64,000 bases of DNA from Syntrophales bacterium (GTDB taxonomy: Bacteria > Desulfobacterota > Syntrophia > Syntrophales > PHBD01). The notes below the pieces were generated by a model. It saw only the letters and a program-made list of their open reading frames with translations. It searched no databases and was not told the origin of the DNA. Within the stretch, counting starts at the first letter, position 1, and each line of letters starts with the position of its first letter. This document shows positions 1,762-61,287 of this stretch, piece by piece. The translations under genes and the position numbers were made by a program. The stretch spans positions 1,676,077 through 1,740,076 of the forward strand of contig OY764159.1 in the NCBI GenBank assembly GCA_963668175.1, read 5' to 3'.

Positions 1762-2901
1762 ATGGAGTTCTCTTTAACGGAAGAACAAACCATGTTTAAG
1801 GAGACCGCGAGGAAATTTGCCGAAACGGAGATTACTCCTCTCATTCATCAGATGGAAACGACACAGCGGACGCCCCGCGAGCTGATCAAGAAGATGCGGG
1901 AGTTGAGTTTTTACGGAATCCAGTATCCGGCCAAGTACGGCGGTGTCGGCAGCACTTATCTCGAATACGTTATGGTCCTTGAAGAGATCTGTCGCGTGTA
2001 CTGCGCAATCGGCGGCCATATTTCCGTCAACTGTCTCTGCGCAGGGACGCTCAACGATTTCGGCACGGAAGAACAGAAGCTGAAGTACCTGCCCCAGGTC
2101 GTGGCCGGAGACGCGGTAGGGAGCTTTGCCTTCACCGAGCCGGCGACGGGCTCCGATCCCGGTGCGGTCCGGACGACCTGCGTCCGCGACGGTAACGACT
2201 GGGTCATCAACGGCGAAAAGATATTCATCACCAACTCGACCCTGCCCGGCTATATCGTCGTCTTCTGCAAGGATGTGGAAAAGGAAAACAAGATCACGAA
2301 TATCATCGTTCCCAAGGATGCCAAGGGCTATTCTACGCCGAAGCTCGTGGAGAAGATGGGCATGCACGGCATGGAAGTGGCCGACGTCGTTCTTGAAGAC
2401 GTGCGCGTGCCGTTTGAAAATACGACCGGCGGTGAAGCGGGACGGGGCAAGGGCTTCACCATTCTGACCACGGAAATCGCCATCGGGAAGCTGGGCATCT
2501 CGGCCGAGTGCGTCGGCATGGCCCAGGGCGCCCTTGAAGAGGCGATCAAGTATGCCAAGGAGAGGGTCCAGAGGGGAAAGCCGATTTCCAGCTTCCAGAC
2601 GATCCAGTGGCTTCTTGGCGAAATGTCGTCCGATGTCGAAGCGGCGCGGCAGTACCTGTACTACACGGCCTACTGGAAATCCCAGAAAAAGGATATCCTG
2701 TTCGATTCGGCGAGGCTCCGTCTCTTCGCATCGCAGGCTTGTCACCGCGTGACGAGCAACGCCATGCAGGTCCTCGGTGCGTTTGCCTATTCGAAGGAGT
2801 TCAACGTGGAGCGGATCTTCCGCGACATGAAACTGGCGGAAATTTACGAAGGTGTCAACGAAATCCAGCGCGTCATGGCTGCGGCCGGTGTCCTTCGCTA
2901 A
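1762..2901 (+). CDS. acyl-CoA dehydrogenase
   Basis: 379 aa; typical ACAD N-terminal helical domain, middle beta domain and C-terminal EIYEG motif; good RBS. Confidence 0.9.
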   Translation: MEFSLTEEQTMFKETARKFAETEITPLIHQMETTQRTPRELIKKMRELSFYGIQYPAKYGGVGSTYLEYVMVLEEICRVYCAIGGHISVNCLCAGTLNDFGTEEQKLKYLPQVVAGDAVGSFAFTEPATGSDPGAVRTTCVRDGNDWVINGEKIFITNSTLPGYIVVFCKDVEKENKITNIIVPKDAKGYSTPKLVEKMGMHGMEVADVVLEDVRVPFENTTGGEAGRGKGFTILTTEIAIGKLGISAECVGMAQGALEEAIKYAKERVQRGKPISSFQTIQWLLGEMSSDVEAARQYLYYTAYWKSQKKDILFDSARLRLFASQACHRVTSNAMQVLGAFAYSKEFNVERIFRDMKLAEIYEGVNEIQRVMAAAGVLR

Positions 2902-2935
2902 ATAGATCATAAGTATATCAGGAAGGAGTACGTTT

Positions 2936-3709
2936 ATGGACATGAAGTATTTGCTGTTGAATGTGGAAGACAAGGTGGCGACCGTAACGATCCATCGTCC
3001 CGACAAGGGGAATGCGCTGGCGCCGGAGGTTCTTCAGGAAGTGGAATATATCTTTACGGAGATCGCAAAGCGTCAGGACGTGAACGTGGTCGTGTTCACG
3101 GGCGGCGAGAAATACTTCTCGGCGGGCTTCGATCTCACGATCATCCGGAAGCTGGAGAAAGTATCGAACGAGGACTACACGGCGCTGTTCCACCGTGCGT
3201 ACCGTGCGATTATGTTCTGCGAGCAGCCGGTAATCTGCGCCGTAGGCGGACCGGCGATCGCGGGCGGATTCGACCTGACCTTGATGTGCGATATCCGGTA
3301 TGCATCCGAGCGGGCGAAGTTCGGTCAGCGGGAAATCGTTCTGTCGCTGACGCCGATCATGGACCCGCTGTGGCGTATCATCGGTCTGGGCCGTGCGAAG
3401 GAAGTGGCGCTGACGGGCCGTATCTACGACGCCCACGAGGCGGAGAAGATGGGCTACGTGACGAAGGTGTTCCCGGAAGGGCAGTTGCTGACGTCTGTCA
3501 TGGCGATCGCGAAGGAGATGGCCTCCTACGACCGTATGTGCCTGAAAGAGACGAAGCAGCTTGCGAACCACATTTTGGACGAAGACCTTGACGGCGCCAT
3601 GAAGGTCCAGGAATGGCTGTTCAGGACGTATATCGGCTCCGAGGACAACCACCAGCGCATCGACGCCCTCCAGGCCAAACTGGCGGCGGCGAGAGCGAAC
3701 AAGAAATAA
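2936..3709 (+). CDS. enoyl-CoA hydratase/isomerase (crotonase family)
   Basis: 257 aa; crotonase fold motifs (VVVFTGGEKYFSAGFDL, oxyanion hole region GGPAIAGG). Confidence 0.9.
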   Translation: MDMKYLLLNVEDKVATVTIHRPDKGNALAPEVLQEVEYIFTEIAKRQDVNVVVFTGGEKYFSAGFDLTIIRKLEKVSNEDYTALFHRAYRAIMFCEQPVICAVGGPAIAGGFDLTLMCDIRYASERAKFGQREIVLSLTPIMDPLWRIIGLGRAKEVALTGRIYDAHEAEKMGYVTKVFPEGQLLTSVMAIAKEMASYDRMCLKETKQLANHILDEDLDGAMKVQEWLFRTYIGSEDNHQRIDALQAKLAAARANKK

Positions 3710-4255
3710 CGGCCTTGCAGTAAGGGGGCCCGGGATACCGGGTTTACTGGGCCAGTTCTGCGTGCCGCGAAGGACGGCCGGATGATGCGGACATCCGGCC
3801 GTCCCCGCGCGGTGGCAGGACCGGCCCCAACGAGGCAGAGATGCCGTCCACCCCTTTGACATCGTTCAATCTTTTCTTCCTCTCCGGGCGGACCGACTGA
3901 CGCGGATATGTGCACCGGCGGAGAACGGCCGCCGTTTCTCTGCGGACGAGGAATGAATCAGGAACCGGGGCTCCGCGTGGAATTTCGATCCGGCTCGCTG
4001 CAGGCTTGACGTCTGGGGACATCCGCGGGGACGGGTTCCTGTTGCTTGTCGTGTCTGTCAACGTACCCCTTGCGCGGGCGGGCATTTGCTGGTATGAAGA
4101 GCACATCACCCCATCCGTGATGGGAAGCTGTAAGGGGTGGGACTACTGAGTGCCCTCATTTGTGTCGCCCTGCCACTTTCGGTTCCCTGCGTTGCCTGCA
4201 TTCCTGCGCTGTTGAGCAGTCATATTCTCCTTAGGAAAGGGTTATAATACCCCAT

Positions 4256-4828
4256 ATGAATGCCATATCCGTCGCCGCCATCGTTTTTGCCGCCGCCCTG
4301 GTCGTCATTTTCATCCGCGGACATCGTATCCTTAAGAAACGAGAGAAGAGGCTCGAAGAGATTGCCCGGGAGGAGCAGAGGGATGTGAGAAAGCTTGCTT
4401 ACGTCGCCTACCACGGCGGTCATCCCGACCTACCGGTGCCCCAGAAGCTGACGGCGGCTCTGACGGAGGATGCCCTTGTCCTGGTAACCAACCGGGGAGA
4501 TAAGACCGTGCTTCCCATGCAAGACTGGGTCAAGTTGGAGAAGTTTACGACAAAGCGGAAGCACGATGTGAAGCAGCGGAGCATGGTCCTCTGGGGCCCT
4601 TTCAATAATGTCATGTTCAAGGATCAGATCCGGCATTTTATAGTCGTCAACTACCGCCACGGCCGGAACGAAGATCCGGACAACCATATCCTGATCGAAC
4701 TGGGAAACCCGGACGAGAGGGACAAGGTATTTGCGGAAATCGACCGGACGCTCACGCAATTCAGACGTTCCGGTCCGGTGGCGGAGCGGGGCCGGCCGGC
4801 GGAAGCGGATCTGCTGCATACGTCCTGA
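4256..4828 (+). CDS. hypothetical membrane-anchored protein
   Basis: 190 aa; single N-terminal TM helix followed by a soluble domain; no recognisable family. Confidence 0.5.
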   Translation: MNAISVAAIVFAAALVVIFIRGHRILKKREKRLEEIAREEQRDVRKLAYVAYHGGHPDLPVPQKLTAALTEDALVLVTNRGDKTVLPMQDWVKLEKFTTKRKHDVKQRSMVLWGPFNNVMFKDQIRHFIVVNYRHGRNEDPDNHILIELGNPDERDKVFAEIDRTLTQFRRSGPVAERGRPAEADLLHTS

Positions 4829-4853
4829 CCGGTGCCAGACGGGGAAAACGGGC

Positions 4854-6995
4854 GCGATGGAAGAGACGGAAAGAGAAAAAAAGCATTTTGACAAGAGATA
4901 CTTTCGCTCTCAGGAGCATTTGAAGAAAAAAGTCCGGCTCCTAGCATCCATCTATAAAATCAGCCGGCTGCTCAACCGGTCCATCACCAGGGACAAGATT
5001 CTGCTTGCCCTCGTCAAGGAGATGAAGAAAGTCTTCGATCTCCACCGCAGCATGATCTTTCTGATCAACAGGCGGGAGAATACCCTGGAGATGAAGTACG
5101 TCATCGGTTTCTCCCCGGAAGAGTCCAAGAGGGCCTTCAAATACCCCCTGGACATGGACAAACAGCAGTGCCGGGAGACGCTCGTCGCCAGGACGGGCAA
5201 GACCATCTACATCAGGAACGCCCAGAACAGCCCGATCATCACCGAATTCGACTTCAAGATGGACCGCATCTGGCGCCGGACGTCCTCCATCTCGATGCCG
5301 CTCAAAATAAAGGGGGAGATCATCGGCGTCATCCAGGGCGACCAGACGGAAAAGGAACTCGTCCTGTCGAAGAGCGACATCGACCTTTTTTCGACCTTTG
5401 CGAGCCACGCCTGCCTGATCATTGAGAACGCCCGTCTTCAGGAGCAGTACCAGAAAAAGATCGCCCAGCTCCTCTCCCTTCAGGAAATTACGAAAAAGAC
5501 GAGCTCCACACTGAACCTCCGGAAACTGCTGAATATCGTGACGGTCAATGCCCTCAAGATCACCGGCGCCGCTGTCTGCACGCTCCTGCTTGCGGAGCGG
5601 GACTATCTCCGTATCGTCTCCTGCGTCGGGCATGAGATCGATCCCGAAAAGTTCCGGTTGAAAATCGGCGAGGGAATCGCCGGCTGGGTGGCGGAGAAAG
5701 GCGTGCCCCTTCTGATCGGCGACGTGACCGAAGAGCCGCGATATATCGAAAGCATACCGGGGATCGGGTCCACCCTGGCCGTTCCCCTGGTCAGCGAGAA
5801 GAAGGCGCTCGGCGTTCTCGTCGTGGACAGCTTCAAGAAGTCGGCCTTTTCGCTCGACGACCTGGAACTCCTCATGGTCTTCGCGAGCCATACGGCGGTC
5901 GTCATCGACAGCGTCCGTCTCTACGAACAGGTGATCGCAGAGAGGAACTTTGCCTCCAACATCCTGGAAAGCTCGCCCAACGGCATCATCACGATCGACG
6001 AGAACAAGAAAATCCGGGCGCTCAACCGGAAGCTGGAGGAGATCCTCGGCATCAAGCGGAGACTCATGCTGGACAAGAAGATCTCCGAAGTCTTCAAGGA
6101 CAACGAAATCCTCGCCGTTCTGAACCAGATGATCGAAGAGCGGCAGATCGTCGAGAACCACGAAGTCACCATGACGAAGAAGGACGGCTCGACGGTCATC
6201 CTGGGGCTCAGTTCTTCCTCCATGCAAACGGACGAAAAAGGGCTGGCGGCCATGATCATCACGATCCAGGACCTGACTGATTTCAAACGCGCCGAAGCCC
6301 TTATCCGCAGGGTGGACCGCCTTTCCTCGCTGGGGCAGTTGTCGGCGGGCATTGCCCACGAGATCCGGAACCCCCTTGCCAGCATCAACTTCAACGCCCA
6401 GCTGCTCCAGAAGAAGCTCAAGTCCGATAGAAATGTCGAAAGCATCCTCAATGACACCTTCGAGGGAATCGACCGTATCAAGGTGCTGGTGCGGCGGATA
6501 CTCGACTTTACCAAGACGGGACAGCCCTCGTTCAGCAAAAGCTCCATCAACAGCGTCATTGCCGACTCCATTTCACTGATCGAACCGCAGCTTAAGAAGC
6601 GCAAGGTCGATATTAAAAGATATTTCGCCGACGGCGTTCCCGATATCCTCTGCGATCCCCACCAGATCCAGCAGGTCTTTGTCAATCTCCTGATGAATGC
6701 GATCGAATCGATCGAGGACGCAGGTACGATCGAAATCAGATCCACCGTGGAAAAAAGGCGGTCGGACGGAACGCGCGTCGTCGTCGTGCTTTCCGACGAC
6801 GGCGTGGGCATCCCCAAGGAGAACGTCGCCCGGGTGTTCGATCCGTTTTTTACCACCAAACCCGACGGGACGGGACTGGGGCTCTCGATCGTCTATAAGA
6901 TCCTGGAGCAGCACGACGCCCAGATAGAAATCAAAAGCAGGGAAAAGAAAGGGACGTCGTTCGTCCTCCGGTTTCCCGTAAAAATGCATACATGA
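4854..6995 (+). CDS. cytoplasmic sensor histidine kinase (GAF-GAF-PAS-HisKA-HATPase)
   Basis: H-box SAGIAHEIRNPL, C-terminal ATPase G-boxes (DGVGIP, GTGLGLSI); internal ATG chosen as start because the longer ORF overlaps the upstream gene. Confidence 0.85.
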   Translation, partial: AMEETEREKKHFDKRYFRSQEHLKKKVRLLASIYKISRLLNRSITRDKILLALVKEMKKVFDLHRSMIFLINRRENTLEMKYVIGFSPEESKRAFKYPLDMDKQQCRETLVARTGKTIYIRNAQNSPIITEFDFKMDRIWRRTSSISMPLKIKGEIIGVIQGDQTEKELVLSKSDIDLFSTFASHACLIIENARLQEQYQKKIAQLLSLQEITKKTSSTLNLRKLLNIVTVNALKITGAAVCTLLLAERDYLRIVSCVGHEIDPEKFRLKIGEGIAGWVAEKGVPLLIGDVTEEPRYIESIPGIGSTLAVPLVSEKKALGVLVVDSFKKSAFSLDDLELLMVFASHTAVVIDSVRLYEQVIAERNFASNILESSPNGIITIDENKKIRALNRKLEEILGIKRRLMLDKKISEVFKDNEILAVLNQMIEERQIVENHEVTMTKKDGSTVILGLSSSSMQTDEKGLAAMIITIQDLTDFKRAEALIRRVDRLSSLGQLSAGIAHEIRNPLASINFNAQLLQKKLKSDRNVESILNDTFEGIDRIKVLVRRILDFTKTGQPSFSKSSINSVIADSISLIEPQLKKRKVDIKRYFADGVPDILCDPHQIQQVFVNLLMNAIESIEDAGTIEIRSTVEKRRSDGTRVVVVLSDDGVGIPKENVARVFDPFFTTKPDGTGLGLSIVYKILEQHDAQIEIKSREKKGTSFVLRFPVKMHT

Positions 6996-30955: not shown

Positions 30956-33046
30956 TCAGGTCTTTGCTGCCGCATCCGGCGCCGAGGCCGGTGCAGCCGC
31001 GGCGTCCTTCTTCGTGATGAGGCTGGTGAGATAGGCGGAAAGCAGGCCGCCGATGCCGTCGCCGCCCTGGACCAGGAAGTCCGGCGTGACCTTGACGTTG
31101 CCCGCGGCGATCTGCTTGGAGATTTCGATGGCCGTGACGCCCTGCTGTCCCACCGCCTTGTTCTGCAGTTCGTAGGCCTTCGCCGTGGCCTCGCCGATGG
31201 CGAGTATCTTGGAACCCTCGGCGTCGCCCTTCGCCTTGATACCCTTCGCCTCGCCCTCGGCCCGGAGCCTGATGCTCTCCGCCTCGCCTTCGGCGAAGCG
31301 GATCGCCTTCTGCTTGTTCTGCTCGGCGATCTTGACGCCGATCTCCGCTTCCACGAGGTTCTTCTGCTGGTCGGCCTCGGAGCGCGTCTTCTCGGTGGCG
31401 ATGCGAGTCTGCTCCGCCTTCTGCTGTTCCTGGTACATCGCCTGCTGCTGCTGGGCGATGATCTTCATCGTCTGTGTGTCCATGAGGTCCTGGGGCAGCT
31501 TGATCTGGCAGATGAGGACGGAGACGCATTCCACATGGTATTTCTCAAGCTCCGTGCGGGCCCGCTCTTCGGCTTTCCGCTGCTCGTCCTGGCGGTCCTG
31601 CATGAAGTTCATGGCGGACGTGGACGAGGCCTGGTTGCGGAAGCTCGAATCGATCATCGGGTGGATGACGTGGCGGATCAGGTTGTCGATGGAGCCGATC
31701 TTGGCGACCATGTAGGGCGCCTGGTCGGGGCGGACGCGGATGATGACCTTGACGGCGACGCTGATCTCGAAGCCGTCGCGGGAGATGACCTTCAGGGGAT
31801 CGAAGTTCGTCTCCTTGGCGTCGTCCCAGTCGATGGTGATGTTCGTCGTATCGACGATGTAGGCGATGAACGCCCGGCGGTTCAGGTAATAGATGCCGGG
31901 GCCGGCCACCTCCTGCTGGATGCCGCGGAAGCCCTTGGGCACGACGTAGCGCTCGATGCCGGTGTCCAGCCTTTTTTCGATCAGTTCGACCGGCGGCACG
32001 CCCGTGTCCGCCTGGATCTCCTTCCTGGCCGTTTCCGCGACGATCTGCTTCACCTGTTCGGGCTCTTCGCCCACGTTCGAGATGACGACGGCGACCTGGC
32101 CGCGCTCCACGGTGGCTACGTCGTCAAGCTCCAGCTGGAACATGAGGGTATTGACGTAGTACGTGCCCGGCTTGAGGACGTCGAACTGGGGGCCGCGCTG
32201 GCCGCCCGCCCCCAGGAACTTCGAGGCGTCCTGGTAATCGTTGTGCCCCGGGACGGACTTCGCCACGTATTCGGTCTCCGGCAGGGGCTCGCCGTCCAGC
32301 GACGTCACCAGCCCGACCTTGCCGGACGGGACCACCGTGGCCTCCCTGACCTCCGCGTGGAAGAGGTCGGTGTTGATGCGGTAAGTGCCGGGCAGCAGAA
32401 TTTCGATCTGCGGCCCCTTCTGGCCGTGGTTGCGGAGGAACATCTGGCCGTTTTCGAAGTTCGAGTGGCCTTCCGCCTTGTGGGCGAGAAGCCGGCCGAC
32501 GGAGATCGGCTCGCCGTCCATCGCCGTGACCATGCCGATCTTGCCCTTGTCGATCACGATGCAGGGGACCTTGCGGATTTTGAACAGGAAGGGGTTGATG
32601 CGGTAGTTCCCCGGCGGGAGGATTTCGATCTGGGGGCCCTTCTCCCCGCCGTTGTGGAGGAAGGCCTCGCCGTCCTGAAACGAATCGTGACCGGAGACTA
32701 CCTTGGCGAAGATCTTTCCCGGAGGAATGGCGTCCCCGTCGATGGATTCGATGATGCCGACCTGGTCCTCGGTGATGACGGTGAAGGGCACCTTCGTCGC
32801 TTTGTAAAGGAAGGGGATCAGGAGGTGAAGCCCCGGCCCCAGGGTCCTCGCCTGGACGCCGACCTCGTCCGCCATGGCGACGACGCGGCCGCTGGGCATC
32901 TTCTTGCCGAACCAGCGCCGTTCGAGAACGGCGATCTGCGTGCCCCCGACGTTGACGATCATGTTAGTCAGGATGATGAGAAAGAGGATGAACCCGACGG
33001 CGTAGAGGGCGACCATGCCCGGGTGCTGAAAGATGTAATCGATCAT
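30956..33046 (-). CDS. flotillin-like SPFH/band-7 protein
   Basis: N-terminal TM, repeated SPFH beta segments, long Glu/Ala/Lys-rich coiled coil (flotillin C-terminus). Confidence 0.85.
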   Translation of the reverse strand: MIDYIFQHPGMVALYAVGFILFLIILTNMIVNVGGTQIAVLERRWFGKKMPSGRVVAMADEVGVQARTLGPGLHLLIPFLYKATKVPFTVITEDQVGIIESIDGDAIPPGKIFAKVVSGHDSFQDGEAFLHNGGEKGPQIEILPPGNYRINPFLFKIRKVPCIVIDKGKIGMVTAMDGEPISVGRLLAHKAEGHSNFENGQMFLRNHGQKGPQIEILLPGTYRINTDLFHAEVREATVVPSGKVGLVTSLDGEPLPETEYVAKSVPGHNDYQDASKFLGAGGQRGPQFDVLKPGTYYVNTLMFQLELDDVATVERGQVAVVISNVGEEPEQVKQIVAETARKEIQADTGVPPVELIEKRLDTGIERYVVPKGFRGIQQEVAGPGIYYLNRRAFIAYIVDTTNITIDWDDAKETNFDPLKVISRDGFEISVAVKVIIRVRPDQAPYMVAKIGSIDNLIRHVIHPMIDSSFRNQASSTSAMNFMQDRQDEQRKAEERARTELEKYHVECVSVLICQIKLPQDLMDTQTMKIIAQQQQAMYQEQQKAEQTRIATEKTRSEADQQKNLVEAEIGVKIAEQNKQKAIRFAEGEAESIRLRAEGEAKGIKAKGDAEGSKILAIGEATAKAYELQNKAVGQQGVTAIEISKQIAAGNVKVTPDFLVQGGDGIGGLLSAYLTSLITKKDAAAAPASAPDAAAKT

Positions 33047-33442
33047 GTTTTTGGTCCTTTCTTCTTGTTCTGGGGTTGATCTTGTTTTTTAGCTTCCTGT
33101 AACCGCTGTTCCGGAGGCCGGACCATTTTCGCCGGCGCATCCCGGCACATGTGTCCGTATACGCGGGAAGCCCGGAACAGGGACGATTTTTGCCAATTCT
33201 CGCCTCTTTTATACTAAAGAATAAGATATTATGCTAATATTTATTTTAGACAGAATCACTATTTTGTAAATAGCTGGGTATTGTAGAGGATAATACACAA
33301 AACGATGGGGCGCGTTTCACGCGAGACGAGGCAAAGGAAAATGGTGGCGTGGGGTGGCTCCGTGATGCGGCCGGGGTGATGCACAGATAAAGCGTTTGCA
33401 GGGAATGAAACCTGAGATTATCGGTGAACGGCCGGTCGCGGC

Positions 33443-35254
33443 CTAGACTAGTTCCGTGAGGGCTTCCCGGATGCGGAGGACCACATCGTCCCAGCCGCCG
33501 GGTTCGTTCTGGTTGAAGATGCGCAGGGTGCCGGGATACCAGGGGCTGTCCTCCCTGTCGACGAACCAGCGCCAGCAGCTGTTGAACCGGTTCAGGAGCC
33601 ATACGGGTTTGCCCATTGCCCCCGCCAGGTGGACGACGGCCGTATCGACGCTGATGACGAGATCGAGGTTTGCGATAAGGGCGGCCGTATCGGCGAAATC
33701 GCGGCAGTCCGCCGTCCAGTCGATGAGCCCGAAGTCGGCCGGGGCCTTCGGCCCGTCCTTCTGCAGCGAGAAGAACCGCACATCGGCGACATCCAAAAGA
33801 GGGGCCAGGCATTCGGGGGCGACGGACCTTTTCCTGTCTGTGATGACGAGATCGGGAGACTGGACCCGAGAGCTTCCCGCCCAGGCCAGTCCGACTTTCA
33901 TGTCGTCCGATCCCAGGGCGGCAATACGTTCCCGCCAGCGGGCCTCGTCGGCGGCATCGGGACGCAGATAGGGGACAACCGCCGGTATCGTTTCGACCTC
34001 CGTCCTGAAAACGACGGGCAGATGCATCATGGGGCAGTGGACATCGAAAGCCGGGATGTCGTCGGTACGCGTGAAAATGGCGTCCACACCGGCGAGTGTC
34101 CGGACAATGCGCTGCAACTGGGGCGGCACGAACATGAGGACGTTGAAACCCATTGCCCTGATCATGGGTACGTACCGGCAGAATTGAATGGTATCGCCGA
34201 AGCCCTGTTCGGCGTGGATCAGGATCGTCCGGCCTTCTCCCGCTTCTCCCCGCCACTCGGGCCGGTTGAAGCACCGGGAAATATGGCTGAACTGCTTCGA
34301 CTGCCAGCGCCATTTGTATTCGCGCCATCCCTCGTCGAAGTGCCCGAGGGCCAGGAGAGACATCGCCAGATTTTTGTGTATTTCCGCATTGCCGGGATCG
34401 AAGCGCAACGCCTCCCGGTAAACCTCGACGGCCTCTTCGTGAAGCCGCGAATCCTTCAGCGTGTTGCCCAGATTGTTGAGGGCGCCGGGATACGTGGGGC
34501 GGAGCGTCAGGGCCTTCCTGCTACACTCGACGGCCCCGGCGAGGTCGTCCCTGAAGCGCCGGATCACGCTCAGGTTGCTGAGGGCCTCGGGATAGTCCGG
34601 TTGGATCGACAGGGCCTCCCGGTAAAGGGCCTCTGCGCCGTCCAGGTCGTTCGAAAGGAAGCGGATAACGCCGAGATTGTTGATGACCAGGGGATTGCCG
34701 GGAACGAGGTCAAGCGCCAGCTTATAGCAGGCCGCCGCTTCGGACAGCAGGCCCATCTCTTTCAGGGTGTTGCCTTTTCCCGTGAGAGTCGCGGCATGAT
34801 GGGGGTCGATGGAGAGCGATTTGTCGAAGGCGGTAAGCGATCCTGCCATGTCGCCGGTCTTTCTCAGGGCATGGCCGATGTGGGCATGAGCCCTGGCATG
34901 GTCCGGCCTGAAGGAGACAACGCGCGTCATGAGCAAAAGCGCCGCGGTGTAATTGTTCTGGGCCAGGTGCATGAGGGCGAAGCAGTACATGACAGCCGTC
35001 GACCGGGGGACGAGGGCCAGGGCCTTCTGCATCCAGGCCTCCGCCTCCTTCTTGCGCCCCTCCACAAAATTGACGACGCCCTGCAGGAAGACGAAGGTGT
35101 GGTTCTCGGGATTTTTCCGCCAGAGCTCGATGCAGACCTGCCGGGTCTCTTCGACTTTCTCCTGCCCGCGTCCGCTCATAATCAGGAATTCGACAATATC
35201 CTCGATCCGGCTGTCCGTGTCTGTCCGGCGGTCTGTCATTGCTTCCCGGTTCAT
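33443..35254 (-). CDS. TPR-repeat protein with C-terminal GT9 (heptosyltransferase)-like glycosyltransferase domain
   Basis: about 9 TPR repeats, then ILIHAEQGFGDTIQFCRY...LAWAGSS...DTAVVHLAGAMGKPVWLL resembling ADP-heptose transferase fold. Confidence 0.75.
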   Translation of the reverse strand: MNREAMTDRRTDTDSRIEDIVEFLIMSGRGQEKVEETRQVCIELWRKNPENHTFVFLQGVVNFVEGRKKEAEAWMQKALALVPRSTAVMYCFALMHLAQNNYTAALLLMTRVVSFRPDHARAHAHIGHALRKTGDMAGSLTAFDKSLSIDPHHAATLTGKGNTLKEMGLLSEAAACYKLALDLVPGNPLVINNLGVIRFLSNDLDGAEALYREALSIQPDYPEALSNLSVIRRFRDDLAGAVECSRKALTLRPTYPGALNNLGNTLKDSRLHEEAVEVYREALRFDPGNAEIHKNLAMSLLALGHFDEGWREYKWRWQSKQFSHISRCFNRPEWRGEAGEGRTILIHAEQGFGDTIQFCRYVPMIRAMGFNVLMFVPPQLQRIVRTLAGVDAIFTRTDDIPAFDVHCPMMHLPVVFRTEVETIPAVVPYLRPDAADEARWRERIAALGSDDMKVGLAWAGSSRVQSPDLVITDRKRSVAPECLAPLLDVADVRFFSLQKDGPKAPADFGLIDWTADCRDFADTAALIANLDLVISVDTAVVHLAGAMGKPVWLLNRFNSCWRWFVDREDSPWYPGTLRIFNQNEPGGWDDVVLRIREALTELV

Positions 35255-35278
35255 GGCATTGTTTCCTTATCCGGGCTG

Positions 35279-36004
35279 TCAGGCCGACGTATTGATGGTG
35301 CCTGCCTGGGTGCCGGCGTTAAGCAGGCCCGCCAACATATCCAGCAGTTTTTTCCGGTTGGAGCCGGACATTGAACCAGTCGAAACCGCATCGGAGGCCG
35401 AACCGCTCGCGCTCACCGATTGCACGTTTTTGAGCAGGTCGGAAAAGGAGCTCTTTGCGCTTGTGAGATCGCCCGACGAGAGGGCGGTGGAGAGTGTGCC
35501 GAGTGCCGTGGACAGCTTATTGGAACTGTCTTTCGTACCGGAGGACGATGCGGCCGCAGTTACGGTTTTCCCCGCCGTTCCCGAATCGGCGGCCGGCCCG
35601 TTCTGCAGGTTCTGCATGACCGTGGCGAAGATATTTCGGGCGCCGGTCAGGTTCCCCGCGGCAAGGGCCGCTCCCAGGGCGTCCATGTCCTTTTTCAGCG
35701 GATTCGAATCGTTTCCGGCCGCGGCCGAAGACGTCGTGCCCGCCGCATCCGTGGAGCTTGCTCCCTGGATGTCCTGCGTGAGTTGCGAGAGGAACGAATT
35801 CTGCGAGTTGAACAGACTGTTGATGTCGAGCGCCTGAAGAAGCGAACTCACATCGGTCGAACTGGTATCCGCGGTGCTGGTCCCGAAGACGGCATTGAAT
35901 GCCGAATCGGCGGATTGACTGCCCGACGAATCGGTCCGCGAACCGAACAGTGATTTATAGAGCTCGTAAAGATAGTTGCTTGACGAAATTCCGGATATCG
36001 ACAC
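35279..36004 (-). CDS. Ser/Thr/Ala-rich low-complexity protein
   Basis: GTG start with perfect AAAGGAGG RBS; 241 aa, over 45% S/T/A/G, no signal peptide. Confidence 0.5.
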   Translation of the reverse strand: MSISGISSSNYLYELYKSLFGSRTDSSGSQSADSAFNAVFGTSTADTSSTDVSSLLQALDINSLFNSQNSFLSQLTQDIQGASSTDAAGTTSSAAAGNDSNPLKKDMDALGAALAAGNLTGARNIFATVMQNLQNGPAADSGTAGKTVTAAASSSGTKDSSNKLSTALGTLSTALSSGDLTSAKSSFSDLLKNVQSVSASGSASDAVSTGSMSGSNRKKLLDMLAGLLNAGTQAGTINTSA

Positions 36005-36805
36005 GATAAACCTCCTTTCTCATCGCCTGTCCCGGACCCCGGATAGAGGCCGGCGGCGATTGCCTCTGGTGGTTGGACAAAAGCAACGAACGTGCCCTGG
36101 AGACAACGTTGCGCGCCGAACCGTCGCATCCCGGCGTGAAGAGTCCTTACGGCCGGACTGACCGGCGGGTTTCTTGCGAATAAAGTTCTTGAAAATCGGA
36201 TATATAGCCGCTATGCCGGAGAGGCGGGCTGCCGCGGTTGCCTTTGAAAAATATACAAATCTTAACGGAAGATTCCAGGTGGGATGCGGCAGGGCAGGCC
36301 GCCCGCCGGCCGCAAAGAGGGAAAATATTGCCAGGGCGGAATTGCCGGGGGAAAATTATGCCTCCGTCCAGCGGCCCGGCCGTGTTCCCGGAAAGAGGGC
36401 GTGGCGGCGCGGGAAGTGCGACGCCTCCCTTCATCTCTCTCCATTCAGGCCGATCGGGACGGCATCGCAACGGAAAATGCGGGCATGGTTCCGTTCGTCT
36501 CCCCCGTTGCCTTTGTTATCCGCGGGAATGCCTCTCCCCGCTTTCCTGCATTCTTCTTATTCCGCACGGACCTCGCGTCCCTTGCCAGACTGGCTGCGGC
36601 CTGCTGCAGGGCGCGGATCTCCTCCGCCGTCAGATAATCGATAGCGCTCCTCATAGCAATCCTTTCCCGTGCCGGCCGCCGGCGGCAATTTTTGCTGCCC
36701 GCCTGCCCTCGATAAAACATTATTTGCCGGTTTCACGGCGTACCCACCCCTCAATATACGGATATTGCATGTCACGTGCCAGGAGAAGGGCGGCTTGCGG
36801 AAATA

Positions 36806-36860
36806 AAGAAAGGGCGGTTGTCCTCGACGGCTCATACGCCGTTCCGCCCTTCTTAAGACA
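36806..36860 (-). terminator. rho-independent terminator downstream of leuD
   Basis: on minus strand AAGGGCGG...CCGCCCTT stem followed by TCTTTATTTCC. Confidence 0.5.
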
Positions 36861-36923
36861 CAGGCTTTCGCCCGTCCTTTATTTTCGATTTTCTGCACTG
36901 TTTTCGGAATTGGTTTCGCAGCG

Positions 36924-37418
36924 TCAGCGCCTATTGGCGACGATGTAGGCCATGAGGCCGCCGGCGGCGACGAGTTCCTGCATAAACGGCGGAATCGGTT
37001 CGATGCGCCATGTCCCCGAAGCCGGTGGCGAAGCCGTGACGGTGCCGCTCGCGCTGTCCACCTCGATCTCGCTGCCCTCGGCGACGGCGTCCCATATTTC
37101 CGCGGATTCGAAGATGGGCAGGCCCATATTGAAGGCGTTGCGATAGAATATCCGGGCGAAGCTCTTCGCAATAACGCAGGAGATGCCGGCCGCCTTGATC
37201 GCTATCGGCGCATGCTCCCGCGACGAGCCGCAGCCGAAATTCTCCCCCGCCACGATGATGTCCCCCCGCGCGATCTTTTTCGCGAACGCGGGGTCCGCGT
37301 CCTCCATGCAGTGGGCGGCCAGGGCCTCCGGGTCCGAAGTGTTCAGGTAACGCGCAGGGATGATGGCGTCCGTATCGATGTTGTTGCCGAATTTCCAGAT
37401 GCGTCCTTTGTACTTCAT
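36924..37418 (-). CDS. leuD: 3-isopropylmalate dehydratase small subunit (LeuD-like aconitase swivel domain)
   Basis: 164 aa; DTDAIIPARYL...GENFGCGSSREHAP motif; ATGA overlap with leuA stop; RBS GGAGG. Confidence 0.8.
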   Translation of the reverse strand: MKYKGRIWKFGNNIDTDAIIPARYLNTSDPEALAAHCMEDADPAFAKKIARGDIIVAGENFGCGSSREHAPIAIKAAGISCVIAKSFARIFYRNAFNMGLPIFESAEIWDAVAEGSEIEVDSASGTVTASPPASGTWRIEPIPPFMQELVAAGGLMAYIVANRR

Positions 37419-58646: not shown

Positions 58647-60187
58647 GCATGCCCCGGAGGCATCTGGACCTAAAATGGCTCTATGCCCTGGCATCGGGAA
58701 TCCTCCTGGCCCTCTCCTTTCCCAAGTACGGCGCGGGTTTCGTCGCCTGGATCGCCCTGGTGCCGCTCCTGCGGGCCGTCACGGACGGGGAAGTTGAAGC
58801 GAAAAAAGGCTTTCTCCTGGGGCTCGTTTCCGGGTTCGCCGCCTATGTCGGCATCATCTACTGGATCACCTACGTCGTCGTCCATTACGGGTATCTCCCC
58901 TACTGGATGGGCGTGGGGGCCACCGTTCTCTTGTCGCTCTATCTCGCCGTCTATGTCGGTCTTTTTGCCGCGGGCGTCGCCGTATTGAAAAAGAGGGGCA
59001 TCCCGTCGGTCCTGGCCGCGCCGGTCCTGTGGACGAGCCTCGAATACGCCAAATCGGTCCTCTTTACGGGCTTCCCCTGGGAAAACCTCGGTTATTCACA
59101 GTATTTGAACATCAACCTGATCCAGATCGCCGACATCGCGGGTGTGCCGGGCATCACCTTCCTGATCGTCCTTACGAACGCCGTTCTCGCCGATCTGCCC
59201 GAAATGAAGACAGACAAAAAAAGGGTGACGGCCGAGTTCATCATCGCCGTCGTCCTGATCGCCGCCGCCAACGTCTACGGCTACTTTCGCCTCAACCAGA
59301 TCGAAAAGGCGATGGAAAAGGCGGAATCCATGGACGTTTCGCTCATCCAAGGCAACATCGAGCAGGACGTCAAGTGGAACCCCGCCTACCAGAAGGGGAC
59401 CATCGACATTTACAGAAAATTCTCCCTGACGGACCCGCCGAATGGCGGGCTTATCGTCTGGCCGGAGACGGCGGCGCCGTTCTTCTACCAGGACCCGGGC
59501 GAAATGCGCGACGCGGTGACGGACGTCGCAAAGGCGACGGGCAGCATGCTCCTCTTCGGGAGCCCCGCCTATAAGCGACGGGACGGCGAAATATACCTGT
59601 CGAACAGCGCCTATCTCCTGTCTGCCGCGGGGGAAACGATAGGCCGGTACAACAAGGTCCACCTGGTCCCTTTCGGGGAGTACGTCCCCCTCCGGAATCT
59701 GCTGCCCTTCATGAGCAAGCTCGTGGCCGGCATCGGCGATTTCGAGTCCGGGCCGGGGTTCGTGCCCGTCGCCGCGGGCAGGCACAAATTGGGCATCCTC
59801 GTCTGCTATGAGGGCATACTGGCCGAGGCCGGCCGAGACTACAAGCGCGGCGGCGCCGATCTTCTCGTCAACGTAACGAACGACGCCTGGTTCGGCAAGA
59901 CGTCGGCCCCTTACCAGCACCTGTCCATGGCTGCGCTCCGCGCCGTGGAGACGCGGCTCTACCTCGTCCGGGCGGCCAACACGGGCATCAGCGCCGTGAT
60001 CGACCCCGCCGGGCGCATCGTCGGCCGGACGCCCATTTTCGAGCGGTGCCAGCTGCCGGGAAAAATTAAATTCATTGACGAGGCGACCCTTTATGGGGCA
60101 TATGGGGACGTTTTCGTCTATCTGAACATGATCATGATGACGGCCATGATCGGATATGCCGTCAAAAAAGGAGGCAAACATGCTTGA
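58643..60187 (+). CDS. lnt: apolipoprotein N-acyltransferase
   Basis: N-terminal multi-TM domain, C-terminal nitrilase-like domain with VCYEGIL and NVTNDAWFG motifs. Confidence 0.85.
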   Translation: MSMPRRHLDLKWLYALASGILLALSFPKYGAGFVAWIALVPLLRAVTDGEVEAKKGFLLGLVSGFAAYVGIIYWITYVVVHYGYLPYWMGVGATVLLSLYLAVYVGLFAAGVAVLKKRGIPSVLAAPVLWTSLEYAKSVLFTGFPWENLGYSQYLNINLIQIADIAGVPGITFLIVLTNAVLADLPEMKTDKKRVTAEFIIAVVLIAAANVYGYFRLNQIEKAMEKAESMDVSLIQGNIEQDVKWNPAYQKGTIDIYRKFSLTDPPNGGLIVWPETAAPFFYQDPGEMRDAVTDVAKATGSMLLFGSPAYKRRDGEIYLSNSAYLLSAAGETIGRYNKVHLVPFGEYVPLRNLLPFMSKLVAGIGDFESGPGFVPVAAGRHKLGILVCYEGILAEAGRDYKRGGADLLVNVTNDAWFGKTSAPYQHLSMAALRAVETRLYLVRAANTGISAVIDPAGRIVGRTPIFERCQLPGKIKFIDEATLYGAYGDVFVYLNMIMMTAMIGYAVKKGGKHA

Positions 60188-61287
60188 AAATGTGACCGAA
60201 ATCCTGAGCGATCTGGAGAAGAGAATCCTGCACGTCGGAGACTGCCTTTGACATCCCCGGCAAGCAGACCGAAATAGACAAGCTCGACGCCCTCTCCCAG
60301 AAGGAGGACTTCTGGAACGATGCCGAAACGGCCAGGGACGTCCTCCGCAGGAAGACCAAACTAGCGACCGTAGCGGACAACTGGAAAAAACTCAAACAAT
60401 CCCTGGACGATGTGAATGTTCTCTACGAGTTGGCCTCCGAGGAGGGCGACGAGGAGAGCATGGCCGAGGTCGAGAAGGAACTGACGACGCTCCAGGCCTC
60501 CGTCCGGAACGAGGAGCTTCGCCTCATGCTCGGCGCCGAGCAGGACGTCCTGAACGCCATCATGGCGATCAACGCCGGGGCGGGCGGCACCGAGGCCCAG
60601 GACTGGGTCGAGATGCTCATGCGCATGTACCTCCGTTGGGCCGAGAGAAAAGGCTACAAGACCAATATCATTGACTTCCAGCCGGGGGACGAGGCCGGTG
60701 TCAAGAGCGTATCGTTCACCCTCGAAGGCGATTACGCCTACGGGTTCGCCAAGGCCGAAACGGGCATCCACCGGCTCGTCCGGATATCGCCTTTCGACGC
60801 CGGCGGCCGCCGCCACACCTCCTTCGCCTCGGTCTTCACCTACCCGGAGGTCAACGACGAAATCGTCATCGATATCGACGAAAACGATCTAAGAATAGAT
60901 ACTTACAGGTCTACAGGGGCCGGCGGCCAGCATGTCAACAAGACCGACTCGGCAGTCCGCCTGACCCACCTGCCGACGGGCATCGTCGTCCAGTGCCAGA
61001 ACGAACGGTCCCAGCACAAGAACAAGTCCATGGCGATGAAATATCTCCGGTCGCGCCTTTACGAACTGAAACTGAAGGAACAGAACGAAAAACTGGAGGC
61101 GATGAACAAGACCAAGAAGGATATCGCCTGGGGGAGCCAGATCCGGTCTTACGTCCTGCATCCCTATAAGATGGTCAAGGACCATCGCACGAACCTCGAA
61201 ATCGGCAACGCCGGACGCGTGCTCGACGGCGATATCGACGATTTAATCGAGGCTTACCTGCTCGCCGCATCATCCGACAAGCCCTGA
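60181..61287 (+). CDS. prfB: peptide chain release factor 2, requires programmed +1 frameshift at CUU UGA C (60250-60256)
   Basis: frame 0: MLENVTEILSDLEKRILHVGDCL-UGA; +1 frame continues DIPGKQTEIDKLDALSQKEDFWND...SPFDAGGRRHTSFASV...GGQHVNKTDSAVRLTHLPTGIVVQCQNERSQHKN; SD-like GGAG upstream of the shift site. Confidence 0.85.

Follow-up and report, generated by a model that had tools for sequence, protein, structure and literature searches.

A predicted TPR-guided glycosyltransferase with a GT9-like domain and its Ser/Thr-rich neighbor, a candidate acceptor, in a Syntrophales bacterium

What does a soluble glycosyltransferase (GT) act on when it carries a long array of tetratricopeptide repeats (TPRs) and its gene lies 24 nucleotides from a gene for a Ser/Thr-rich protein? 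This question is raised by a 64,000-nucleotide stretch of a Syntrophales bacterium genome (contig OY764159.1, positions 1,676,077 to 1,740,076; hereafter the window), for which a preliminary description had proposed a protein O-glycosylation pair of the heptosylation type, next to a flotillin. The RibB protein of this Syntrophales-like deltaproteobacterium clusters, at 90% identity or more, with a protein from a metagenome-assembled genome of a Syntrophus sp. The two open reading frames (ORFs), of 603 and 241 amino acids, lie where that description placed them (33443-35254 and 35279-36004, both on the minus strand). The explanation that we prefer, tentatively and with somewhat less than even confidence, is that the longer protein may be a cytoplasmic, TPR-guided protein glycosyltransferase, with the co-transcribed and disordered Ser/Thr-rich protein as its likely acceptor. 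The features of the pair, in window positions, are as follows.

36011..36018, minus strand: Shine-Dalgarno sequence AAAGGAGG, 6 nt ahead of the GTG start of the Ser/Thr-rich gene
35279..36004, minus strand: gene for the 241-residue Ser/Thr-rich protein, with the N-terminus MSISGISS and the C-terminus TINTSA (ORF, family alignment, AlphaFold2 (AF2) model, dN/dS, composition)
35255..35278, minus strand: 24-nt spacer with GGATAAGGAA, a weak Shine-Dalgarno sequence for the GT gene (compared with loci L092 and L093)
33443..35254, minus strand: gene for the 603-residue soluble TPR and GT9-like glycosyltransferase (ORF, Pfam, AF2 model)
34289..35206, minus strand: TPR domain, residues 17-322, 8-9 repeats (Pfam, 34-residue repeat register)
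33446..34288, minus strand: GT-B catalytic domain, GT9-like, residues 323-603
34193..34204, minus strand: GFGD motif, residues 351-354 (invariant in relatives; modelled secondary structure)
33599..33652, minus strand: SVDTAVVHLAGAMGKPVW, residues 535-552, nucleotide-sugar-binding signature (aligned to WaaC 259-275, including D261 and T262)

The minus-strand order is leuA, leuD, a gap of about 920 nt, the 241-residue ORF, the 24-nt spacer, the 603-residue ORF, a gap of 396 nt, the flotillin gene, and a 287-residue ORF, so that, in the direction of transcription, the GT gene is preceded by the Ser/Thr-rich gene and followed by the flotillin gene. The adjacency of the pair and the good ribosome-binding site of the Ser/Thr-rich gene had been correctly recognized, whereas the order had been reversed: the Ser/Thr-rich gene, which precedes the GT gene, had been called the next one, and the flotillin had been placed immediately upstream on the same strand. 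Two further features flank the pair.

36801..36849, minus strand: terminator-like hairpin and U-run of leuD (RNA fold -22.3 kcal/mol, z -2.8, then UUUCUUUAUUU)
33243..33270, minus strand: sigma70-like promoter TTTACA-16-TAAAAT, inside the AT-rich 396-nt gap before the flotillin gene (sequence reading)

The hairpin 3' of leuD marks the upstream boundary and the promoter-like site marks the downstream boundary; together with the 24-nt intergenic distance, they make a two-gene unit of the Ser/Thr-rich gene and the GT gene, apart from the leu genes and the flotillin gene, the simplest reading of this sequence.

The 603-residue protein gives strong Pfam TPR matches (TPR_2, E = 6.5e-36), and a 34-residue register resolves 8 regular repeats at residues 51-322 and an imperfect N-terminal repeat, in agreement with the nine or so repeats claimed earlier. 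Asn occupies repeat position 6/7 in each of the last four repeats (NNLG, SNLS, NNLG, and KNLA), and the Asn residues of these GT-proximal repeats may correspond to the Asn ladder of OGT, which they resemble. The repeats nearest the GT domain, which are those included in the family alignment, match the TPRs of human OGT (E = 6.8e-55). The protein is soluble, with neither a transmembrane helix nor a signal peptide, and its gene is under strong purifying selection (omega 0.14-0.16).

The C-terminal domain is less easily classified. The motifs GFGDTIQ and DTAVVHLAGAMGKPVW, which had been named as marks of a GT9-like enzyme, are both present, and the Pfam profile Glyco_transf_9 (PF01075) exceeds its cut-off of 22 bits with a score of 25.8, although the match is confined to residues 520-551, or 32 of the profile's 247 positions. 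The NCBIfam heptosyltransferase I model, with a cut-off of 185, reaches 26.6 bits. With so partial a profile match, the domain cannot be filed as a standard GT9 on its sequence. A first family profile searched against solved structures was swamped by TPR matches, and the GT-only profile then used reached, among Protein Data Bank (PDB) sequences, WaaC at E = 0.24 only; the single GT domain gave nothing above noise against the sequences of solved structures. An AF2 model of residues 300-603, based on a 30-sequence alignment, has a predicted local distance difference test (pLDDT) score of 88.7 and a predicted template modelling (pTM) score of 0.89, and its top Foldseek matches in the PDB are a Veillonella GT9, WaaF, WaaC, and TibC, so that the modelled domain has a GT-B fold nearest to solved GT9 structures. 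The likeness to TibC and WaaC envisaged earlier holds at the level of the fold; no sequence-level match to TibC was found.

WaaC uses as its catalytic base Asp13, located in a G-D motif after β1, and carries its nucleotide-sugar motif at Asp261-Thr262. When the GT-only alignment was compared with WaaC/WaaF/WaaU by hhalign, SVDTAVVHL was aligned with SVDTGLSHL (probability 95%, E = 3.4e-8), and this was the only segment to align; the acceptor-side N-terminal half of the domain has no detectable sequence similarity to WaaC/WaaF. All 30 relatives compared (50-64% identity) keep Asp354 of GFGD, Arg476 of DRKRS, and Asp537-Thr538 of SVDT..H unchanged, so the loss of catalytic residues that the preliminary description had considered is not seen. 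Asp354 lies in the β1-α1 loop, which in the AF2 model comes after strand 44-48 and before helix 53-68, and the conserved GT9 Lys (K192 in WaaC) appears, from the motifs, to be replaced by an invariant Arg. The family also has invariant motifs of its own that are not found in WaaC/WaaF (EGWxEYxWRW, FCRY, SLQK, and CWRW..R.DSPWYP), and three conserved cysteines (in FCRY, HCP, and CWRW).

The 241-residue protein contains 20.7% Ser and 9.5% Thr, and Ser, Thr, Ala, and Gly together make up 53.5%, above the 45% given in the preliminary description. Its peak 19-residue Kyte-Doolittle hydropathy is 0.95, so it has no transmembrane helix or signal peptide, also as described. The ORF is a real gene, since homologs exist (at 79%, 52%, and 43% identity) and dN/dS against the 79%-identical homolog is 0.23. 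AF2 models the protein as mostly disordered (pLDDT 42), with helices or hairpins at residues 102-134 and 158-199; three helical hairpin repeats of the form ..L..AL..G(D/N)L..A...F..L are present, of which the first is degenerate, and the hairpins are faintly like four-helix bundles (matches to cytochrome b562 and DUF4363). Pfam returned nothing significant (the sole match, to MPH2 at E = 0.0067, had 17.7 bits where the cut-off is 29), and NCBIfam returned no match.

Sequence searches place the protein in an unnamed family: a single-sequence search found 21 proteins, and a profile search found at least 408; a metagenome scan was made with five closer sequences. The family ranges over Betaproteobacteria (Silvimonas, Amantichitinum), Verrucomicrobiae, and many peat and soil metagenomes. 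Its members share a nearly invariant N-terminus, MSIS(G/A)(I/L)SS, a conserved C-terminus, (S/T)(V/L)N(V/I)(T/Y)A, and from 1 to at least 5 copies of the repeat (N)P..D...L..AL.SG(D/N)L..AQ..F..L.Q..Q, joined by Ser/Thr/Gly/Gln linkers. His tracts occur in 25 of the 37 members with a strict MSISGI-type N-terminus, a few members (L105, L107, and L109 among the loci) end in an EF-hand-like DKKDINKDGTVS.EEE segment, and in one locus a heavy-metal P-type ATPase is encoded two genes upstream of a family member (L111, 3568-6198); taken together, these features are a hint that the family may have a role connected with metals. In L096 (80-601) and L110 (371-892), a family gene is preceded in tandem, immediately upstream, by another Ser/Thr-rich gene of a different kind (MSDVSGVTNLNSS...VNVNA), whose terminal motifs are similar to those of the MSISGISS family.

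The arrangement of Ser/Thr-rich gene, 24-nt spacer, and GT gene recurs in loci L092 and L093, with a spacer of identical length and nearly identical sequence; the L092 Ser/Thr-rich protein is 79% identical to that of the window. Relative to L093 (4550-7117), the Ser/Thr-rich gene is nearly identical (dS 0.06) and the GT gene is far more diverged (dS 0.43), a contrast suggestive of a mosaic or of a breakpoint of recombination at this spacer. Beyond these relatives, the closest distant GT ortholog among 80 GT loci (68% identity in the GT domain) is found in L006, a deltaproteobacterial metagenome-assembled genome (MAG), where a 142-residue member of the Ser/Thr-rich family is encoded 440 nt downstream of the GT gene. 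By phmmer, this protein matches the window protein at E = 3.5e-4 and P0124 at 1.4e-16, and it is the sole match to the family in the 1.17 Mb of six-frame ORFs of the 80 loci; a loose N-terminal motif expression gave mostly noise, with genuine matches only in L006 and in the Xanthobacteraceae proteins described below. Plain inherited synteny was rejected as an explanation for L006, as nothing else in that locus maps near the window locus. In L116 (1283-1867, plus strand; 2732-5683, minus strand) and L094, a family member is convergent to a gene for a 983-residue TPR protein of another fold, a SPINDLY/OGT-like GT41 (Glyco_transf_41, E = 9e-23). A TPR-GT is thus an immediate neighbor in 3 of about 19 lineages, which we estimate, without calculation, to be far above chance because TPR-GT genes are rare per genome. 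The association is clearly not obligatory, and the pairing, as read from gene neighborhoods, is plausible and partly supported.

If the Ser/Thr-rich protein is the acceptor, the enzyme might work as follows. The TPR superhelix (residues 17-322) would bind an extended, disordered polypeptide, with the GT-proximal repeats offering an OGT-like Asn ladder, and would pass it to the GT-B domain with its GT9-like fold (residues 323-603). There, Asp354 of GFGD may act as the general base on a Ser/Thr hydroxyl, giving an O-linked product, while the invariant Arg476 of DRKRS and Asp537-Thr538 of SVDT..H would hold the nucleotide sugar. The preferred acceptor would be the co-transcribed 241-residue protein, 30% of which is Ser/Thr and whose Ser/Thr-rich linkers flank the short helical hairpins. 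The heptose suggested in the preliminary description finds no backing at this locus: no heptose-pathway or sugar-nucleotide genes were found in the window, no residues specific to a donor could be mapped in the domain, and no evidence favors any particular donor sugar.

To our knowledge, only a few bacterial systems are known to O-glycosylate proteins in the cytoplasm, namely FlmG and Maf (flagellin), TibC/Aah (autotransporters), GtfA/B (serine-rich adhesins), HMW1C, and EarP. Among these, TibC and Aah, of the BAHT family, glycosylate Ser residues of an adjacently encoded protein in the cytoplasm, as is proposed for the window pair, and are GT9-like protein heptosyltransferases (cited in PMC7591256). 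They have no TPR domain, however, and the neighbor in the window is a 241-residue disordered protein without an autotransporter domain or signal peptide; the window enzyme is not a BAHT, because it has no sequence relation to TibC and no autotransporter neighbor. WaaC and WaaF (GT9, PF01075) share with it the D-T-x-x-x-H nucleotide-sugar motif and a G-D motif after β1, but only about 50 residues can be aligned, and the window protein is fused to TPRs. The GT41 enzymes (OGT, SPINDLY, and Xanthomonas XCC0866) have an N-terminal TPR array that agrees with it in sequence type, down to the probable Asn ladder, and modify Ser/Thr of disordered regions in the nucleocytoplasm, and a TPR-GT41 gene adjoins a Ser/Thr-family member in L116. 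The window enzyme is nevertheless not a GT41: the GT41 profile comparison that had been proposed showed that its catalytic domain does not belong to that family.

FlmG of Caulobacter crescentus and Brevundimonas subvibrioides, a 596-residue cytoplasmic flagellin O-glycosyltransferase, has TPRs at its N-terminus, to which the acceptor protein binds, and a GT-B domain at its C-terminus, by which the donor is selected (PMC7591256; bioRxiv 10.1101/2022.03.25.485807). Judged by its published description, FlmG resembles the window enzyme in being soluble, in its domain order, and in length (596 against 603 residues), and relatives of the window enzyme adjoin flagellin genes (L024, L026, L081, and L084). 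In contrast, the 64-kb window contains no gene for flagellin, FlgI, or pseudaminic/legionaminic (nonulosonic) acid synthesis, and FlmG is described as confined to Caulobacterales, whereas the GT family of the window enzyme is very large. On these comparisons, the best-supported reading is that the window enzyme would combine an FlmG/OGT-like architecture with a TibC/Aah-like catalytic fold.

The size of this GT family was apparent from a word-indexed search, which gave at least 7,992 matches, the match at rank 120 still having E = 5e-98. When 1.84 billion cluster representatives were searched exhaustively with phmmer, 39,715 matched at E <= 1e-3 and 16,737 at E <= 1e-30. Family proteins bear the NCBI name [quoted passage not shown], and by far the most of them carry a fused TPR array of the OGT type; stand-alone GT domains without TPRs also exist (P0065, 320 residues, and P0081, 305 residues, both on long contigs). 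Many relatives of the GT domain (P0265-P0414) are giant proteins of 1,000-3,100 residues with 2-6 tandem GT9-like domains among TPRs, an architecture of which we know no description. Searches of the available literature found no paper on proteins combining TPRs with a GT9-like domain. The window enzyme thus has nothing unusual within its very large family, for which no experimental characterization was found.

A conserved partner was sought among the neighbors of 75 GT loci, and none was found; the recurring neighbor clusters reflect within-genus synteny or generic response regulators. Individual neighborhoods are more suggestive. Five Xanthobacteraceae loci (L024, L026, L037, L055, and L081) contain two or three GT paralogs inside a flagellar cluster, with FlgI in 5 of 5 and flagellin genes in L024, L026, and L081. 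In all of them except L037, one GT paralog is divergent from a different Ser/Thr-rich protein of 267-288 residues (30-37% Ser and Thr), which begins with M(G/S)IGSIGSSTSFWQQDQ and has no Pfam match; the gene for this M(G/S)IGSIGSS protein sits between a TPR-GT paralog of about 865 residues and the flagellins. In L084, from Geobacteraceae, MotA/MotB-like genes (recognized by eye from their N-termini) are followed by two TPR-GTs (658 and 2,310 residues) and then a flagellin gene. A 1,762-residue Ser/Thr-rich RTX-like protein is encoded directly upstream of the GT gene in a Bradyrhizobium MAG (L079), and on an Azospirillum plasmid the GT gene adjoins one for a calcium-binding protein of more than 2,600 residues, and is also placed among GT2 and GT4 polysaccharide-type genes. 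Plausible protein acceptors therefore recur beside members of the GT family, without a universal partner.

These neighborhoods lend weight to another explanation, in which the TPR-guided enzyme modifies a protein encoded elsewhere (a flagellin, a pilin, or a large adhesin), and the Ser/Thr-rich protein is an adaptor or regulator or a mere passenger. An acceptor elsewhere would agree with the GT genes beside flagellin genes in L024, L026, L081, and L084 and beside the giant proteins of L079 and Azospirillum, as well as with the fact that most Ser/Thr-family members have no GT neighbor; no flagellin, flagellar, pilin, or adhesin gene, however, is present in the 64-kb window. An accessory role would suit the faint likeness of the helical hairpins to four-helix bundles, as GlfM, a small helical protein encoded in cis beside the protein glycosyltransferase Maf-2, is a four-helix-bundle specificity factor (bioRxiv 10.1101/2023.12.03.569772). 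This likeness is drawn from the description of that system, in which Maf is a GT-A rather than a GT-B enzyme and GlfM is an adaptor that is not rich in Ser/Thr. A 30% Ser/Thr content in disordered linkers looks like an acceptor instead, and the presence of one Ser/Thr-rich family beside two unrelated TPR-GT folds, GT9-like and GT41, is better explained by a shared substrate than by a shared adaptor. We regard this explanation as somewhat unlikely.

A second alternative is that the GT9-like domain acts on a non-protein acceptor, such as the lipopolysaccharide (LPS) core, a glycolipid, or a polysaccharide primer, with the TPRs organizing a complex and the Ser/Thr-rich neighbor being unrelated. 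The lipopolysaccharide heptosyltransferases WaaC and WaaF are among the nearest solved folds, P0065 and P0081 lack TPRs, and the Azospirillum gene lies amid polysaccharide-type genes, all of which would fit. The soluble nature of the protein, which has no membrane-association element, the fusion of OGT-type TPRs in the great majority of the family, and the absence of LPS, capsule, and sugar-nucleotide genes from the window point the other way, as do the dissimilarity of the acceptor-side half to the WaaC/WaaF sequences and the recurrence of the Ser/Thr-family adjacency in L006 without other synteny, making such an acceptor improbable. A last alternative, that the whole protein is only a TPR adaptor and its GT9-like domain serves as a scaffold without catalysis, as the GT9-fold NDH subunit PnsB1 does, is very hard to reconcile with the invariance of the GFGD Asp, the DRKRS Arg, and SVDT..H in all 30 relatives and with the strong purifying selection on the gene (omega 0.14).

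Several observations weigh against the preferred explanation of an enzyme paired with its acceptor. Most of the Ser/Thr-rich family members examined, from about 16 other lineages, lack a TPR-GT within 5-10 kb (L001-5, L087-91, L095, L101-104, L106, L109, L111-113, L115, and L117-120), and 79 of the 80 GT loci examined lack the Ser/Thr-rich family, including the next full-length GT orthologs, L007 (62%), L008 (58%), and L009 (53%), which have no family member as a neighbor. The suggestion that the Ser/Thr-rich protein is the substrate is favored by the recurrence in L092, L093, and L006, and by the GT41 neighbors in L116 and L094, but is not matched across the two families at large. The neighbors of the GT family are heterogeneous overall, and the enrichment of Ser/Thr-rich proteins among immediate neighbors of GT genes (6 of 150, compared with 6 of 559 at other places in these loci; Fisher p = 0.024) is weak, carries no correction for lineage, and draws four of its six cases from one clade. 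On the enzyme side, sequence similarity to GT9 is limited to about 50 residues, a remote relationship, and Asp354 is predicted to occupy the position of the WaaC catalytic base Asp13 by topology, without residue-level superposition. Lastly, the His tracts and EF-hand tails of relatives suggest a metal-related function of the Ser/Thr-rich proteins, which could be unconnected with glycosylation.

The flotillin that had been linked to the pair belongs to the following gene.

30956..33046, minus strand: gene for a 696-residue SPFH/flotillin protein (ORF, Pfam)

As a component of the system it was ruled out, since the AT-rich 396-nt gap contains a promoter-like site of its own and a homolog is present in 0 of 80 related GT loci, recurring only in the near-identical relative L093; its position next to the GT unit is incidental, with no apparent role. 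The protein itself is unusual, with an N-terminal transmembrane anchor, three repeats of about 74 residues (at about 85-300) that end in G..GPQ(I/F)(E/D)(I/V)L.PG.Y..N, and an SPFH domain at residues 375-545, and the region has a GC content of 0.55 against about 0.60 around it. On the other side of the unit, the stretch of about 920 nt between leuD and the Ser/Thr-rich gene (36005-36923) contains no convincing ORF or Rfam match, and an Rfam search of 32900-37100 at E up to 1 gave no match. The Joint Genome Institute (JGI) annotation of L093 puts a 204-residue antisense gene in this gap, which has no family match and is probably spurious.

Two other parts of the window may be mentioned. The prfB gene, which encodes release factor 2 (RF-2; 60180-61287, plus strand), has a canonical programmed +1 frameshift site, CTT TGA C, at 60246-60252; frame 0 terminates in ...GDCL*, and the RF-2 domains go on in the +1 frame. 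The segment 16999-24479 (plus strand) encodes a 573-residue WG-repeat protein, a 694-residue protein without a Pfam match, a choloylglycine/linear-amide hydrolase family protein, and a DUF2950 protein.

The combination of TPRs with a GT9-like domain is extremely common, with 39,715 cluster representatives, some of which carry up to six GT domains. In a wider scenario, which we consider unlikely, the Ser/Thr-rich family of at least 408 proteins would be widespread bacterial disordered glycoproteins for which GT9-like (window and L006) and GT41 (L116) TPR-GTs were recruited independently, and the GT family of about 40,000 clusters would be a bacterial counterpart of OGT with substrates encoded in cis, namely flagellins, RTX-like giants, and Ser/Thr-family proteins. 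Should the pairing be wrong, this would be just one more generically annotated TPR-containing glycosyltransferase. If the 241-residue protein is the acceptor, however, the unit would provide a tractable route to the function, the donor sugar, and the acceptor logic of the whole GT family, and also an entry into a second uncharacterized family, that of the at least 408 disordered proteins.

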